The notes under the pieces were generated by a model. The model had not been told where the DNA came from and ran no database searches. It saw only the letters and a list, made by a program, of their open reading frames with translations. Shown here piece after piece: positions 4,703-30,174 of a DNA stretch of 34,570 nucleotides. The stretch's first letter is position 1. Each line of letters starts with the position of its first letter. Source of the stretch: Synergistaceae bacterium (GTDB lineage: Bacteria > Synergistota > Synergistia > Synergistales > Aminobacteriaceae); assembly GCA_017394925.1 (NCBI GenBank), contig JAFPWQ010000058.1, forward strand, positions 1-34,570. Reading direction: 5' to 3'. Position numbers and translations under genes: made by a program.

Positions 4703-4740
4703 TCCCCCTTGCTGAAACGGTGAGGGGGATTTTTTTTTTT
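4703..4740 (+). terminator. Rho-independent terminator after glgB
   Basis: Stem TCCCCCT (4703-4709) pairs with AGGGGGA (4723-4729), followed by an 11-T run at 4730-4740. Confidence 0.85.
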
Positions 4741-9015: not shown

Positions 9016-9048
9016 GAGAGGGGTATTTCTGCCCCTTCTTTTTTTTTT
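9016..9048. terminator. Terminator hairpin between the convergent RND permease and binding-protein genes
   Basis: AGGGG (9019-9023) pairs with CCCCT (9032-9036), followed by a T10 run at 9039-9048. The U-tract on the opposite strand is weaker. Confidence 0.75.
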
Positions 9049-24748: not shown

Positions 24749-24777
24749 TCCCTCTCTGAAAACGGGAGGGATTTTTT
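24749..24777. terminator. Terminator hairpin after ruvX, shared with the convergent vapC remnant
   Basis: TCCCTCTC (24749-24756) pairs with GGGAGGGA (24764-24771), followed by T6 at 24772-24777. The stop codon of the minus-strand PIN gene (24776-24778) lies in the T-tract. Confidence 0.8.
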
Positions 24778-25200
24778 ATTTGCCGAAAGTGAAGACATCA
24801 GCAAAATATTCTTCAGGTGTTAATGCTTTCACTTTGCTGTTCTGATAATCTTTTGCGTTTCTCGTGATTATATAGTCCGCATTGAGGCGTTCTGCTGTTA
24901 CGCTCTGTACTGCGTCTTCGTAATCATGCCATTTCATATTTGCGGCCTCTTCAACATCCGAAAATTTAAAAGATCCGCAAACCTGAACGCTAAAGCCAAT
25001 GCCATAAATATCTCCTGCATACGGTCAGGAGTTAATTCTTTTCTCATGATGTAGGATATATTAATCAGGCTCATAGCAGAGATATAACCTTCAATGTAGT
25101 TATCCTCACAGTATCCCCACACTTTGAGAGCTTCATCAAGATACGGTTCTCTCTCCTGCAGCACATCAAGCAGTACGTTTGTGTCAATCAGCAATCTCAT
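24776..25200 (-). pseudogene. PIN-domain toxin (VapC-like) interrupted by a 1-nt frameshift in an A4 run
   Basis: The N-terminal 80 codons (MRLLIDTNVLLD...FADLLNF) are in the 24934-25200 ORF frame. The C-terminal 61 codons (SDVEEAANMKWHDYEDAVQSVTAERLNADYIITRNAKDYQNSKVKALTPEEYF...) are open in another frame down to the TAA at 24776-24778. One extra A in AAAA at 24961-24964 joins them into a 141-aa PIN protein. Confidence 0.8.
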
Positions 25201-25495: not shown

Positions 25496-26025
25496 TTATA
25501 CAATTACTTCACTCTCAATTATCTTCATGGCCTCACGCTCAAGCACATACGCTTCGTATCTCTTCGTATTTGCCTCAAGCGCAAGTGAATTTATGCGGCT
25601 CTGAATCTCTTTGTCCTTCAGCAATGGAAACGGAACCTGCTGCATATGCTCATCTCTGATTTCTTTAACGACTCCTCCGCAGGAATAACGTTTCACAAGT
25701 TCACATCCATAATCAGAAGCAAAGAATGTATACGTGTAGCCTGCAATATCATCTGAAACAGGAACTACCCTCATAACGTTCTGGCTTACTGTCCACCCTT
25801 CCCAATGCTTTGGAACAATAGTTGCTTTTCCAACTGTGCCGATGCATGTTACAAGAATCATATTCTCATGTATTGTCAGCACATCACGAATCAAATTCTC
25901 ATGCTTTGAGAATGCAAGATATTTTTTCTCTGACGGGTCAAGCTCACTAATCTGTTTGCCTCCGATAAATACAGCTCCATATCCTTCATCAACGTATACT
26001 CGCTTAAATATTCCAGGCAGAATTA
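25496..26025 (-). CDS. Specificity (HsdS-like) module, second target-recognition domain plus helical spacer; it has no start of its own, and its frame is continuous with the upstream ORF if the T7 tract were T8
   Basis: The frame is open from the T7 tract: IILPGIFKRVYVDEGYGAVFIGGKQISELDPSEKKYLAFSKHENLIRDV...TCIGTVGKATIV...EIQSRINSLALEANTKRYEAYVLEREAM. That is a TRD followed by a conserved coiled-coil helix. The ORF track lists only 25496-25894. Confidence 0.7.
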
Positions 26026-26955
26026 TTTTTTTCTCACTCTTGAATCTCCGACAGTCAGAACTTCTTCTGCATGTTCTCTCAGGTGATTTATAATCGCATT
26101 GAACAGCGGCGAATGAAACGAGGCCTCAAACCGCATTGAGCTTAAGAAATCCGCACTGTTAACCGTGAATGTCATCGTATTATATTTATGCTTCATATCA
26201 TCAATCGGCGGAAGTTCAAGCTCACGGATCATTAATGCTTCTGCCTCGTCAATCATTGAATTAGATTCATCACGAAGAGCATATGACTTTATGACGAGTT
26301 CATGAATCCTTCTGCGCAATTCCTTCGGCGCATTGGGAACGGGAATATCATTCAGGTGTTCAGGGTTAATGTGCTTAACAACCGCTCCGAATTCAAGAGA
26401 ATGCAAAAGTTTCTGACCCTCTGAGCTTTTGAGATACGCATAAATATATCCGGCATCATCTGAATCTCTGCAGTCGATTCGAATCATGTCAGGACTCAAA
26501 TATTTTCCGTCAAGCGTTTCTGATACATATGTTACATTTCCTATTGTGCCTGAACGCGATAACAATAGCTGCCCTTCATGTATCATCAGTTCATCAATTT
26601 CTGACTGTTTACGCGAATACAAATATCCGTCTGCTTGAGGCTTTATGTCAGTAACACTTGAGGGCTGGAAGAAGGGATACGGAGATTTCGAGCGCATGAG
26701 TTTAACTGAACGGCCGAACATATACGAATTCGCAAACTCTTCAAACCTTACAGCCGGATATTTCCCGTTCTCAATTGACGATGATATATCTTCAGCCTCA
26801 CGGTTATATGCTCCTGCCTCAAGACGCATATTTTTATCCGCAAGAATATCTTTAATCTCAATAACTGATATTCCAGTCTCCCCAGAAGAAAGCCGTTTTT
26901 TTTTTCCCCCGCCATTCCTCAAATACAGCAGGAAGTTCAATCGTCTGATCGTCAA
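26023..26955 (-). CDS. Specificity (HsdS-like) module, first target-recognition domain plus helical spacer; the annotated start overlaps the methylase gene by 98 nt
   Basis: ISVIEIKDILADKNMRLEAGAYN...SRSGTIGNVTYV...RRRIHELVIKSYALRDESNSMIDEAEALMIREL is a TRD plus a central conserved helix. The ORF ends at a TAA created right after the A7 (plus-strand T7) tract at 26026-26032. Confidence 0.7.
   Translation of the reverse strand: MTIRRLNFLLYLRNGGGKKKRLSSGETGISVIEIKDILADKNMRLEAGAYNREAEDISSSIENGKYPAVRFEEFANSYMFGRSVKLMRSKSPYPFFQPSSVTDIKPQADGYLYSRKQSEIDELMIHEGQLLLSRSGTIGNVTYVSETLDGKYLSPDMIRIDCRDSDDAGYIYAYLKSSEGQKLLHSLEFGAVVKHINPEHLNDIPVPNAPKELRRRIHELVIKSYALRDESNSMIDEAEALMIRELELPPIDDMKHKYNTMTFTVNSADFLSSMRFEASFHSPLFNAIINHLREHAEEVLTVGDSRVRKK
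26026..26032. repeat. T7 homopolymer at the junction of the two specificity-module ORFs
   Basis: Read directly. On the coding strand, AGA AAA AAA TAA becomes AGA AAA AAA ATA ATT CTG (RKKIILPG...) with one extra A. Confidence 0.9.
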
Positions 26956-28846
26956 CAGTCCTTACGGGCATTCCGTCGTCATTGCGTTCAATTATTTCAT
27001 TGCCGGCTTCATCACGAATGTAAATCGTATTGCCGCGTCTGTCATGTCCGACTCTGTCTATGCTGGCCATGAATACAGGGTAATTCGCAATGTGATTCGC
27101 AATTGCCTCATTCGTTTTCTCACGTTCGGTCTTCTTCTGAAGAATGAGTATCGATGTCTGCGTTCCGTTGTTGGGCTGAAATGTATCAGGCGTTAAATCA
27201 AGACTCGCCGCTGCAGTGTGATTCGTGAGAATCCATTGACGTATATAGCCCAGTCCAGGCGATCCCAAAATCGAATCAGGAAGTATAATCCCCATTCTGC
27301 CGCCCTCTTTCAGTAACTGCGTGCACCTCTCAATGAATAATATCTCAGGAGGAACTGATGACTGCAATTTATTCTGCATTTCCCATGTATTTGAATCTTT
27401 GCCGCGTTTCCACATGTGAGCGAGTTCAAATTGTTCGAGTATATATTCATCTTTTATCGGGATTTTGCTTCCGAACGGAGGATTCGTAACTATCACGTCA
27501 AAGAGTGCAATGCTTTTATGATTCCTGATTGATGATGCCTTTATGCCTAATGCCTTTGCAATATGCTCTTTGAATTCTTCCGGCCACATGTGCGGCGGTA
27601 AAAGTGAGTTCACCTGTAATATATTTCCGCTTCCGTCGTTATTCATGACCATATTCATGCGTGTTGCCTTTGCGAGATCCGGATTCAGGTCAAACCCGAA
27701 ATACTGACGTGATGCAATCTCTTTCACTCTGTCATCATATTCTCTGAGCTGTGAGCTGTTCCATTTATCTTTGGGAATTCCGAAATCTTTCTCGAACATG
27801 GCCTGAAGATTATCAAGCGTGTGAGTCATGGCCGCAACGATGAAGCCTCCCGTGCCGCATGAACTGTCAAGAACTTTTTCGTCAAAGCCCGGGTTAATCA
27901 TCTCGACGGTCATCTTCATAATATTTCTGGGCGTGAAGAATTCTCCTCTGTCCCCTCTGAGATTCGCACCGACAATTTCTTCGTATGCCTTGCCTTTTAT
28001 ATCTATATCTGTGTTCAGGAGGCTGTAACTCTGAAGGGCACTTACGACATAAGCGAGGCTTCTGGGACTGAGATTTATTTTGTCATTCGGGTCAAATATT
28101 TCACTGTATGCAGCTTTCACTCTGTCAAAAATTTTACCGATTCGATTCGCCGCTTTTATCTGGCCGTCAAGACTTTTGCGTTCATTTGATGTCGCGTAGA
28201 ATTCAAGCTCGTTAGGCCGGTTCTTTTCGTCCTGAATCTTGCAGAATATTATCTTGAGGAATTCAAAGAATGCAGGTTGTTTGTGTAACCCGTCATTAGC
28301 GTAGATATGATTATGGCATGTCCTGAATACGAACAGCAAATTATCATCTGAGGCATTGCGCAAAGTGCTTCGCTTTGGTCTGTCGATCTCATCAATTTTT
28401 CCGTTGGCCGCAGGTATGTCATTATATTCAATGAAATCTGTTACGCCTTCTGAATCAATAATTTTTCTGAATACGAATCTGGCCATGCTGTTAGTCCACA
28501 TTCCCCACTCACAATTTGGACATACGGACATGTAAGATTTCAGCTGTTCGATTCCGTCCTTTGAGCTTTCAGCATTAATTGAAGACTTTTTGCATTCGAT
28601 TATGATTTTTGCGTTTTCCTGAGTGTGTTCATCTCCTGAGTTCCATATTACAATGTCTGCTCTTGGGCGTGAACTTCCAGTTTTGATTCCGAATTCAATT
28701 TTTATCTGTTCGCGTTTATATTTCAGTTCATTGATTAATCTTTTCTCGATCGTCTGACGCACATATTCTTCGGGAGTATCATTTCTTTGCTGTCCGTCAA
28801 CAAAATCAAGAATTTTACCCTCCTGTACAGATATAGAATTTTGCAT
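26858..28846 (-). CDS. Fused restriction endonuclease (PD-(D/E)xK, HSDR_N-like) and gamma-class N6-adenine DNA methyltransferase (BcgI-A-like / Type IIB-IIG R-M subunit)
   Basis: The N-terminus has PEEYVRQ...RADIVIW...AKIIIECKK (a D...ExK nuclease core). The centre has GEFFTPRNIMKMTVEMI...VLDSSCGTGGFIV (motifs X and I) and VIVTNPPFGSKIP (NPPF, motif IV). GAGGTGA RBS 7 nt before ATG 28846. No separate HsdR gene is present. Confidence 0.8.
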   Translation of the reverse strand: MQNSISVQEGKILDFVDGQQRNDTPEEYVRQTIEKRLINELKYKREQIKIEFGIKTGSSRPRADIVIWNSGDEHTQENAKIIIECKKSSINAESSKDGIEQLKSYMSVCPNCEWGMWTNSMARFVFRKIIDSEGVTDFIEYNDIPAANGKIDEIDRPKRSTLRNASDDNLLFVFRTCHNHIYANDGLHKQPAFFEFLKIIFCKIQDEKNRPNELEFYATSNERKSLDGQIKAANRIGKIFDRVKAAYSEIFDPNDKINLSPRSLAYVVSALQSYSLLNTDIDIKGKAYEEIVGANLRGDRGEFFTPRNIMKMTVEMINPGFDEKVLDSSCGTGGFIVAAMTHTLDNLQAMFEKDFGIPKDKWNSSQLREYDDRVKEIASRQYFGFDLNPDLAKATRMNMVMNNDGSGNILQVNSLLPPHMWPEEFKEHIAKALGIKASSIRNHKSIALFDVIVTNPPFGSKIPIKDEYILEQFELAHMWKRGKDSNTWEMQNKLQSSVPPEILFIERCTQLLKEGGRMGIILPDSILGSPGLGYIRQWILTNHTAAASLDLTPDTFQPNNGTQTSILILQKKTEREKTNEAIANHIANYPVFMASIDRVGHDRRGNTIYIRDEAGNEIIERNDDGMPVRTVDDQTIELPAVFEEWRGKKKTAFFWGDWNISY
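26896..26910. repeat. T10C5 homopolymer pair at the methylase / specificity-module junction
   Basis: Read directly. The coding strand is GGGGG AAAAAAAAAA. Both overlapping frames run through it (...EEWRGKKKTAFFWGDWNISY* and ...RNGGGKKKRLSSGETGISVIEIK...). A9 (or A12) would fuse the methylase frame to the specificity frame. Confidence 0.9.
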
Positions 28847-28922: not shown

Positions 28923-28958
28923 AAAAAAAATTCCCCTCATCATTAGCGACAAGGGGAA
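28923..28958 (-). terminator. Rho-independent terminator after the acidic-protein gene (minus strand)
   Basis: TTCCCCT (28931-28937) pairs with AGGGGAA (28952-28958). The A8 run at 28923-28930 gives a U8 tract on the minus strand. Confidence 0.8.
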
Positions 28959-28980
28959 TAAATATTTTTTTCATAATATC

Positions 28981-29969
28981 CTAATCTCCGAATAAGCCAA
29001 GTATGTCTGAAAGGTCTACCGAATCATTTTCTTCTTCTACGCGTGTCTTGATTGCTGCTGTCTCATCTTCGAGTTTCTTTCTTGCCTCAAGAATACTTTT
29101 CGCCTGTTCGAGTCTCTTAATCGCCGTATCACGATAGCCGTTATCATAAAGAATCATGGCCGCATTCGTGATGTACCCTCCGAGAAACGCTTCGTACTTT
29201 TTCGCATCCGATTCTGCCCTGTCGAAATCACCCTGAAACTTTCCCGTGAACTGTTTTGCGAACTTTTCAACTTCATGTGATAGTAATTCTCCGCTGATTG
29301 CGCCTAACTCATCAAGCATTTTGTCAAATTCAGTTTTGGTTGATACTGAATCTACATAGCGTTCGCCTGATGTGAAATCATATTTGAGTTTGAATTCTCC
29401 TGGTTCGCCTTCAGACTCAGACTCAGATTCATTTTCGCTTTCATGTTCTGCATTTTTGTTTTCTGATTCAGATTCAGGCTCATGCTCTGTAGGTTCTATT
29501 TGTTCGGGCTCATTGACGGATTCAAATTCGGCTTCAGATATAAATTCCTGCTCATGAGTATCTAGCGTCTCTTCATGTTCAGCTTCGGATTCTATTTCTG
29601 GTTGTGATTCCTGTTGTGATATTATTTCCTGTATTTGTTCAGGTTCATTTTCTTCTGGTTCTTTTTGTTCTGCTGATACTTCCTGTTCCTGCTCCGATTC
29701 AGATTCAGTTTCAGTTTCAAGTTCTGATGTTGGCTGTTCCTGTTCAGATTCAGATTCTAATTCAAGTTCTGCTGTTAATTCCTGCTCTGATTCTAATTCT
29801 ACTTCTTGTCCTGATTCTTTTTGCTGTTCTTGTGCATCTTCCTGAACCGCCGAAACATTATCACTGTCAGAATCACTTTCAGGAACGCAAATATTCTCAG
29901 TATTATCCGAAAGAGTTTCAGATTCATCAAAGTGTTCAAGATTTTCGTTATCCAGTCCAGCGTTTTCAT
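28981..29969 (-). CDS. Extremely acidic Glu/Ser/Gln-rich protein with a structured C-terminal domain; as assembled it has no in-frame canonical start (ATG 29967-29969 is off by one base)
   Basis: I translated 28981-29970 codon by codon. The frame is open for 329 codons from the TAA at 29971-29973, with no ATG/GTG/TTG until MLDELG at 29319. The ORF track therefore reports only 28981-29319. The only ATG just upstream of the open frame (29967-29969) comes into frame if the T4 run at 29963-29966 were T5. Confidence 0.55.
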
Positions 29970-29988
29970 TTTATTTTTCTTTTTCTTT

Positions 29989-30174
29989 TTATTCAAAGAG
30001 TTTTTTTTTCTCGTCAATCAGACTAAGAAGATTTTCAATTCCGGAAAATTCTCCGGCTTCAGGTTCAGACTCAGAATCAGATTCAGATTCAACAGCAACG
30101 ACAGGAGGCAGTAATTTTTCTTCCTCTTTTTGCTTTGCTTTCTTCTTAAGCAGTGCTGCTCTCAGGAACGGCAT
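29989..30174 (-). CDS. Small 61-aa ORF translationally coupled to htpG, in the same frame as the downstream acidic ORF
   Basis: The ATG lies 3 nt after the htpG TAA. It has a basic N-terminus (LLKKKAKQKEEEK), then VESESDSESEPEAGEF, and ends in EKKK (an A9 tract) LFE-TAA. A second in-frame TAA follows 15 nt later. Confidence 0.45.
   Translation of the reverse strand: MPFLRAALLKKKAKQKEEEKLLPPVVAVESESDSESEPEAGEFSGIENLLSLIDEKKKLFE

Follow-up and report, generated by a model that had tools for sequence, protein, structure and literature searches.

A poly-A run at the joint between the nuclease-methylase and specificity parts of a Type IIB-like restriction-modification locus in a rumen Synergistaceae species

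Type IIB restriction enzymes are known in two architectures, one in which nuclease, methylase and specificity parts form a single chain (RMS; AloI and TstI) and one in which a nuclease-methylase chain (RM) is accompanied by a separate specificity chain (S), as in BcgI and BsaXI (PMC4027205, PMC11997821). BsaXI is assembled as (RM)2S and BcgI as A2B, and TstI acts as a homotetramer (PMC4027205). Here we describe a restriction-modification (R-M) locus in a stretch of 34,570 nucleotides from a Synergistaceae bacterium (assembly GCA_017394925.1, contig JAFPWQ010000058.1), all of which is referred to as the window. The locus lies on the minus strand at positions 25496-28846 (3,351 nt) and its RM and S parts are separated by a change of reading frame at a run of ten adenines. 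Our best explanation, which we regard as somewhat probable, is a Type IIB-like locus whose slip-prone RM/S run is kept by selection and which in the window strain is split at the run and carries a truncated S.

R-M genes switched by homopolymers are also already known, in Helicobacter, Campylobacter and Neisseria, and include the phase-variable C. jejuni cj0031 and N. gonorrhoeae NgoAV hsdS. The window locus resembles them in that the length of a coding homopolymer decides if the longer R-M polypeptide is made, but their runs consist of G or C and vary in length among isolates, while the run described here is poly-A and invariant in its species, and the second break of the locus is not a tract change. 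In H. pylori, the Type IIG JHP1272 (HP1353-54) contains two homopolymer switches, one for on/off and one for specificity, and the BcgI-like HP1471/72 has a stop after RM, no start codon for S and a poly-G homopolymer (PMC3936762). The latter tract is situated inside S, whereas the poly-A run of the window is situated at the junction.

Runs of nine A are well-documented sites of transcriptional slippage (PMC1088944); in T. thermophilus dnaX (tau/gamma) an A9 run gives ~50% short product, and Shigella mxiE is fused by slippage. Like these genes and the transposases of IS elements, the window locus has an A run of at least nine where overlapping frames meet, and diverged homologues preserve both the run and the ORF layout, but no example of transcriptional slippage in an R-M system turned up in the literature searched. 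A further parallel is the engineered EcoKI M-S fusion ("Type IMS"), in which removal of one frameshift gave a working fused enzyme that needed free M for activity in vitro (PMC3510504). There, as at the window locus, the C-terminus of M is adjacent to the N-terminus of S and fused and split forms are interchangeable; EcoKI is however a Type I system with a separate HsdR, its fusion is laboratory-made and its natural junction is a 1-nt overlap instead of a homopolymer.

A Type IIB-like locus broken at two homopolymers

Analysis of the ORF, its Pfam domains and its invariant motifs bore out the 662-aa nuclease-methylase of the initial annotation (Table 1). R62-A63-D64 and E84-C85-K86 of the nuclease, methylase motif I (DSSCGTGGF) and motif IV (NPPFG) are invariant across 15 homologues. 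The best match of RM among solved structures (PDB) is RM.BsaXI (E=2e-47), with the similarity limited to the methylase core, residues 176-580. The HsdR gene said to be missing is indeed absent: no gene for HsdR, a helicase or a translocase was found anywhere in the window, and Pfam found no helicase or ResIII domain in RM.

The S ORF is placed in the +1 frame relative to RM (26955..26023, 310 aa), and the RM frame reopens at ~26031 and runs to 25496. The only homopolymers of seven or more in the 3,351-nt region are an A10 and an A7, both exactly at these frame changes, with coordinates and peptide readings as first described; the A10 junction, G5A10 on the coding strand, is here called T1 and the A7 followed by TAA is called T2. 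When one A was taken from the A10 and one added to the A7 in silico a single ORF of 1,116 codons appeared, the very fusion that had been proposed. T1 lies directly past the C-terminal helix of RM, where A9 would join RM to S; in the window RM instead ends in a short frame-0 tail, KKKTAFFWGDWNISY, followed by a stop.

Pfam run on the conceptual fusion gave HSDR_N_2 (25-145), N6_Mtase (280-579), Eco57I and Methylase_S (992-1085). An AlphaFold2 (AF2) model of the fusion, mediocre in quality (pLDDT 65, pTM 0.53, alignment of 15 sequences) and used only for placing elements, predicts the C-terminal helix of RM at 638-648, a low-confidence linker (649-658) at T1 and, with low confidence, long helices at 841-876 and 1079-1115, which fit a TRD1-CR1-TRD2-CR2 layout (TRD, target recognition domain; CR, conserved region). 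A search with the fusion revealed dozens of real single-chain proteins of 1,093-1,129 aa that cover it end to end (99-100%), with 81% identity for P0001, 65-68% for P0002-6 and 54-59% for P0011-49 (P-numbers denote homologous proteins, L-numbers compared loci). The two-TRD specificity module and single-chain Type IIB domain order of the initial annotation thereby stood, the fusion being colinear with these homologues. The same search also gave many RM-only proteins of 648-678 aa, and therefore both known Type IIB architectures, RMS and RM+S, occur in the family.

With nuclease and methylase in one chain, a two-TRD HsdS-like module and no ATP-dependent translocase, the locus is, judged by its sequence, a chromosomal Type IIB-like R-M system of a rumen Synergistaceae species; near-identical proteins come from Synergistaceae bacterium metagenome-assembled genomes of the ruminant gut. 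In its order of nuclease-methylase-TRD1-helix-TRD2-helix and its ~1,100 aa it can be likened, by layout and size and not by sequence alignment, to AloI, TstI, PpiI, CjeI and HaeIV. Exactly this single-chain form, as one continuous ORF, is present in orthologues such as locus L011, L018-L025 and P0001-P0049, whereas the window needs two frame corrections to reach it. In its split state the locus has the RM+S form of BcgI and BsaXI, in agreement with the likeness to BcgI A/B noted at the outset. It shares with BcgI, BsaXI and Hpy99XXII (HP1471-72) an RM with N-terminal PD-(D/E)xK nuclease and gamma m6A methylase, a separate two-TRD S and the lack of a translocase; it differs from these two-subunit enzymes in that the RM/S break falls inside a conserved poly-A run and its closest relatives are single-chain.

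In PADLOC the generic models MTase_II (517 bits, RM) and Specificity_II ranked highest. Among named NCBIfam models the top matches were MAD2 for RM (627 bits) and MAD5 for S (324 bits), positions 10-460/461 of the MAD5-type S profile corresponding to fusion residues 667-1114. Membership in MADS was rejected, the scores being below the equivalog cut-offs of 720 and 400, with no other mad genes nearby and no defence-family matches among the neighbours.

The junction run in fused and split genes

Species-representative genomes were scanned and yielded 80 loci, which form two groups. Clade B, mostly Firmicutes (L029-L097), lacks the run; its RM measures 673 aa, and RM and S make up an ordinary operon in which stop and start overlap as ATGGTAA. 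A scan of metagenome contigs gave almost only such run-less Firmicutes loci. Clade A consists of Synergistaceae/Fretibacterium and Selenomonadaceae with methylase (M) genes 64-84% identical to one another in nucleotides, and in this clade an unbroken A9 or A10 is always found at the same place, just past the C-terminal helix ...F-x-E-W. The run is present in the window species, L011, L012-14, L015-16, L017, L018, L019/L178, L020, L021, L022, L179-L180, L023-L026 and L099, and its conservation spans at least 15 diverged lineages, fused and split alike.

Among the fused genes, S continues in frame after an A9 in L011, L019, L020, L022, L024 and L025 and after an A10, whose tenth A opens the next codon, in L018, L021, L023 and L099. 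Two kinds of split genes were found. After an A9, S is in the M+2 frame and has its own ATG or GTG start in L012-14, L015-16 and L017, where RM ends in the conserved tail KKTAYVWAWKWNR, and no start in L026; after an A10, in the window species, L178 and L179/L180, S is in M+1 without a start. The A10-split form equals the A9-fused form plus one A and the A9-split form equals the A10-fused form minus one A, and the existence of both kinds means that slips in both directions have happened. The run is kept in differing codon phases (KKK or xAA-AAA-AAA-Axx). AAA makes up 0.35-0.79 of Lys codons, other runs of two or more Lys are all-AAA in 7 of 42 cases and M has no other A run above seven, so that the conservation of the run exceeds what Lys codon bias would give. 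Both split kinds also show the slippage signature of Baranov et al. 2005, an A/T run of at least nine at an ORF overlap conserved in non-identical homologues, as A9 with S in M+2 (L012, L015, L017, L026) and as A10 with S in M+1 (window species, L178, L179).

Close pairs reveal the change itself. L178, which has A10 and a 667-aa RM that terminates in QKKNYFCGQ*, aligns with L019 (A9, fused, 1115 aa) across 5,576 nt at 99.785% identity and with only one gap; the fused A9 gene of L022 and the A10 genes of L179/L180 (655 + 436 aa) share 91.6% identity; and L011 (A9, fused), the syntenic orthologue of the window locus (htpG / acidic-protein / R-M), differs from it at the junction essentially by one A. 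Cluster look-ups also placed short members inside clusters otherwise fused at 90% identity or above. These alignments indicate that one-A changes at T1 have split the gene at least three times independently, and interconversion of fused and split forms by one-A changes is shown at the level of the compared alleles. The split allele is found in ~1 in 14 in the sister species and is fixed in the window species.

In the window species, all 11 assemblies including the window carry A10, the ten others being 98.4-99.6% identical in nucleotides and coming from several samples and assemblers; no run-length polymorphism at T1 was found among them. The homopolymer switching proposed for the locus gains support at T1 from the conserved run and the A9/A10 differences that separate fused from split genes, at 99.8% and 91.6% identity and against L011; it is not supported by the species' own assemblies or by T2. 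The expected tract-length differences between related genomes were likewise seen between L019 and L178 and between L022 and L179 but not within the window species. As in contingency loci, a slip-prone repeat stands in coding sequence exactly where the frame is decided, and T1 is the only long homopolymer inside conserved coding sequence in the window; the other homopolymers of ten or more, T11 at 4730-4740 and T10 at 9039-9048, are both intergenic. Directly 5' of the A10, at 26906-26910, an in-frame GGG indel separates two strain groups, one with G5 (662-aa RM) and one with G2 (661-aa RM, five loci).

The end of free RM was also compared. The tail of the A9-split group is rich in Trp, KK(T/M)AY(V/I)WAW(K/I)W(NR), at L012:4062-4105, L015:5913-5947 and L017:2061-2104, and in run-less clade B RM ends ...EWK(R/K)QEGL(S/G)W*; selection appears to act on the C-terminal end of free RM. 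General dual coding, with a conserved RM tail hidden in fused genes, was rejected, since such a tail was seen only in L011, close to the window, the other fused genes having unrelated short out-of-frame tails. The Trp-rich tail was not accepted as a sign of an ancient split in the window either, as it belongs to the A9-split group (M+2, own S starts) whereas the window is M+1 and its tail likeness is partial.

Table 1. Features of the R-M locus and its upstream border in the window
Feature	Position	Strand	Remarks
RM gene, 662 aa	26858..28846	-	ORF; N-terminal PD-(D/E)xK nuclease and gamma-class N6-adenine methyltransferase
Nuclease domain, residues 25-145	28412..28774	-	D64, E84-x-K86; Pfam PF13588, E=5e-26
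Methyltransferase domain, residues 280-579	27110..28009	-	FFTPR, DSSCGTGGF, NPPFG; Pfam PF02384, E=1e-28
T1, coding-strand G5A10	26896..26910	-	G5 = 26910-26906, A10 = 26905-26896; RM/S junction
TTG, candidate S start	26953..26955	-	98 nt inside RM; AAGGA 3 nt upstream
ATG (MRLEAG...), S start of gene callers	26827..26829	-	S calls of 444 and 268 aa
S first half: TRD1, central helix, first strand of TRD2	26023..26895	-	+1 frame relative to RM; ends at TAA created by the T2 deletion
T2, A7 (26032-26026) then TAA	26026..26033	-	C of Ser codon AGC lost directly 5' of the run
S second half: TRD2 and C-terminal helix	25496..26031	-	RM frame again; orphaned by T2; Pfam Methylase_S
Terminator-like hairpin and T-run	28930..28959	-	End of upstream acidic-protein gene

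The specificity module, strain variation and setting

The S frame contains no ATG, GTG or TTG from the run up to GISVIEIKDIL, its conserved N-terminal strand. Ahead of this conserved N-terminus the only canonical start is the TTG at 26955, the start overlapping the methylase gene by 98 nt that had been pointed out before, and initiation of S from it is possible. An S translated from the ATG at 26829 would lack GISVIEIKDILADKN, a stretch of ~20 residues conserved at the N-terminus; where relatives have an independent S start, it is located 13-20 codons upstream of LRLEAG.

At T2 the window and L006 read GAG-AAAAAAATAA, L001-5 read GAGCAAAAAAATAA and L008 and L009 read GAGCAGAAAAATAA. In codons this corresponds to AGA GTG AGA AAA AAA TAA in the window and L006, AGA GTG AGC AAA AAA ATA ATT (RVSKKIILPG) in L001-5 and AGC AGA AAA ATA in L008/L009. 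The A7 has the same length in the broken and the intact (L001-5) alleles, and homologues read RVSSK, RVSRD or RISSA at this position, with the Ser conserved and the A-run absent. As had been predicted an A8 restores the frame, but the intact allele is GAG-C-AAAAAAA, with the C lost from the broken one and the run unchanged, and nothing points to this tract being in use. The alignment thus identifies T2 as an ordinary one-base deletion at the CR1/TRD2 boundary and not a tract-length change, and the earlier idea of two tracts gating one enzyme in four expression states falls, T2 being the deletion of a flanking C in two of nine strains and A7 being absent from relatives. The possibility that T2 is a slippage tract or a programmed -1 site was likewise rejected; in form, A_AAA_AAA before TAA is indeed a slippery heptamer, but the intact allele differs by the flanking C, the A7 is invariant in length and relatives lack the run.

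Among the nine strains covering the site, only the window and L006, which are from different samples, have the frameshift, and S is intact in the other seven. The S second half downstream of T2 is still 99-100% identical to intact alleles and the deletion is therefore recent. In relatives, P0056 and P0060, S is truncated at other positions. In comparison with L011, S has a dN/dS (nonsynonymous to synonymous substitution ratio) of 0.25 and M one of 0.09, dS being 0.7-0.9. L008 (3408-3650) and L009 (3408-3569), corresponding to ~25800-26060 of the window, carry another TRD2 allele with 84% nucleotide identity from exactly T2 onward, which resembles the TRD2 of P0001, P0004 and P0005; this amounts to TRD reassortment with its breakpoint at the CR1/TRD2 boundary, typical of a live system. 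The intact S in seven of nine strains, its dN/dS and the TRD2 swap argue against simple decay and imply that S is still under constraint and expressed in some way in the window species.

Over ~840 nt the TRD1-CR1 part (26060-26895) is 100% identical across 11 strains and the RM gene (26911-28846) differs by 0.4-1.1%, which suggests that the S segment has recently undergone a sweep or been transferred. The RM of the window looks recombinant, its 5' part being like L001-5 and its 3' part like L006-10.

The rest of the window is housekeeping chromosome (alaS, ruvX, htpG, dnaJ, coaBC, ackA and an AcrB-type pump), the R-M locus being flanked on one side by the gene of an acidic protein adjoining htpG and on the other by a VapBC-like pair adjoining ruvX/alaS. 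The terminator-like hairpin and T-run upstream (Table 1) mean that the locus is probably its own transcription unit. Downstream, the PIN-domain toxin of the VapBC-like pair (24776-25200, minus strand) is split into 88 + 53 aa in the window, L001, L004 and L005 and is a single ORF of 138-140 aa in L002 (7763-8179) and L003 (7075-7497). The upstream acidic Glu/Ser-rich gene (28981-30174, minus strand), which encodes 393-401 aa in other strains, contains in the window alone two in-frame TAA codons, at sites that read GAA in all the others. A C-to-A change in it also makes an A9 (T9 at 30001-30009), and three strain-unique changes fall within ~40 nt of an A-rich stretch (29970-30010), reflecting either a pseudogene or local sequence error. 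At the start of the contig (1-118), just upstream of an MBOAT acyltransferase ORF, the 7-nt unit CATCGCA is perfectly repeated in tandem 16.9 times, either as a heptanucleotide repeat or as an artefact of the assembly end.

Possible functions of the run

In our preferred explanation the RM/S run is either a contingency switch or a transcriptional-slippage site. Slippage by one A turns a single-chain RMS gene of AloI/TstI architecture into RM with an out-of-frame S, the BcgI/BsaXI-like layout, and the reverse. From the fixed A10 and the lack of a canonical S start near the junction we infer that S is made only upon restoration of the frame, which could come about if a minority of cells slipped to A9 during replication, making the run a contingency switch, or if RNA polymerase or the ribosome slipped on A10, giving a constitutive mixture of products; these DNA-level and RNA-level routes may coexist, not being mutually exclusive. 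Most of the protein in A10 cells would be RM alone, unable to find DNA without S. In the window strain restoration at T1 would yield only RM plus half of S (~940 aa), and the most likely state of the system in this strain is OFF or in decay. Work on EcoR124I, EcoDXXI and NgoAV shows that HsdS proteins, when truncated, can form dimers that recognise symmetric sites, and that the half-S variant acts as a dimer on a symmetric site is a speculative option.

Several observations weigh against selection for a switch or slippage site. The A10 in 11 of 11 assemblies of the window species leaves no DNA-level switching visible there, and a split allele in ~1 in 14 in the sister species also fits recurrent loss-of-function at a mutational hotspot. 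The A9-split relatives, with their own S starts and conserved RM tail, are stable two-gene operons in which the run is not needed, and S of the window may be initiated instead at the internal TTG or at ATG 26829. Such an ordinary BcgI-like operon, with S translated from TTG 26955 (Shine-Dalgarno-like AAGGA) or ATG 26829 and the run irrelevant, would agree with the RM+S architecture common in the wider family, with the ATGGTAA overlap used by clade B and with the 444-aa S annotated by gene callers from the ATG. We nevertheless find it very improbable, given that the TTG would add ~20 out-of-frame residues behind a spacer of only 3 nt, that the ATG drops ~20 conserved residues kept by every independent S, and that the closest orthologue (L011) reads through as one chain. 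Quite unlikely, though less so, is plain decay, in which the A-run would be no more than a hotspot of mutation within a Lys-rich linker and the window species has fixed a frameshift in a pseudogene now gaining lesions such as T2. The A10 in every assembly with no S start, the second frameshift in two of nine strains, the other truncated S forms in relatives and the two nonsense codons in the neighbouring gene of the window strain would all fit decay; on the other hand RM is intact with all catalytic motifs, S is intact in seven of nine strains with dN/dS 0.25 and exchange of TRD2 alleles within the species, and conservation of the run over lineages at 64-84% nucleotide identity would be unexpected for a neutral hotspot. 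As for a homopolymer miscall or assembly artefact, the strain-unique changes in another A-rich stretch of the window are odd, but the identical A10 in ten independent assemblies and the T2 deletion common to L006 from another sample effectively refute it and lay to rest the concern about miscalls raised in the initial annotation.

The run might, finally, be a site of programmed slippage and not a DNA switch, with RNA polymerase stutter and/or ribosome slide producing RM alone and the RMS fusion in every cell. This would explain why the run is found in fused and split genes, why no S start is needed in A10 lineages and how A10 can be fixed with S selected, and the A10 in 11 of 11 assemblies together with constraint on S agrees better with constitutive slippage than with switching. 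Fused and split forms alike retain the run, including the stable two-gene forms that would gain by losing it, the comparative signature of Baranov et al. is present (PMC1088944), and the A9 run of T. thermophilus dnaX gives ~50% short product. BsaXI as (RM)2S and BcgI as A2B contain two RM units per S module, which a mixture of products would supply, and the engineered EcoKI M-S fusion is inactive in vitro unless free M is added (PMC3510504); the RNA-level reading is attractive in that the cores of Type IIB and Type I enzymes need two RM (or M) units per S. Against it, the out-of-frame tails of the fused forms are not conserved and the single-chain Type IIB TstI, active as a homotetramer, has no separate RM subunit (PMC4027205), and on balance we consider it unlikely. 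Its more specific version, a dnaX-like site setting the RM:RMS ratio, with RM and RMS pairing into an active (RM)+(RMS) heterodimer that would correspond to the (RM)2S core of BcgI/BsaXI, is slightly more doubtful still.

What looks new is the poly-A run exactly at the RM/S joint, conserved in at least 15 gut and rumen lineages of Synergistaceae and Selenomonadaceae, which has repeatedly flipped the gene between the two forms in both slip directions; no description of such a conserved joint flipping between the two Type IIB architectures was found in the literature searched. For annotation, an "N-6 DNA methylase, 662 aa" followed by a start-less S ORF should lead to a check of the run before a pseudogene or an ordinary operon is called. 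Use of the run as a contingency switch or transcriptional-slippage site, if real, would reveal how restriction barriers are modulated in anaerobic gut commensals, and the locus would offer a natural setting in which to study how the second RM unit needed by single-chain Type IIB enzymes is obtained.

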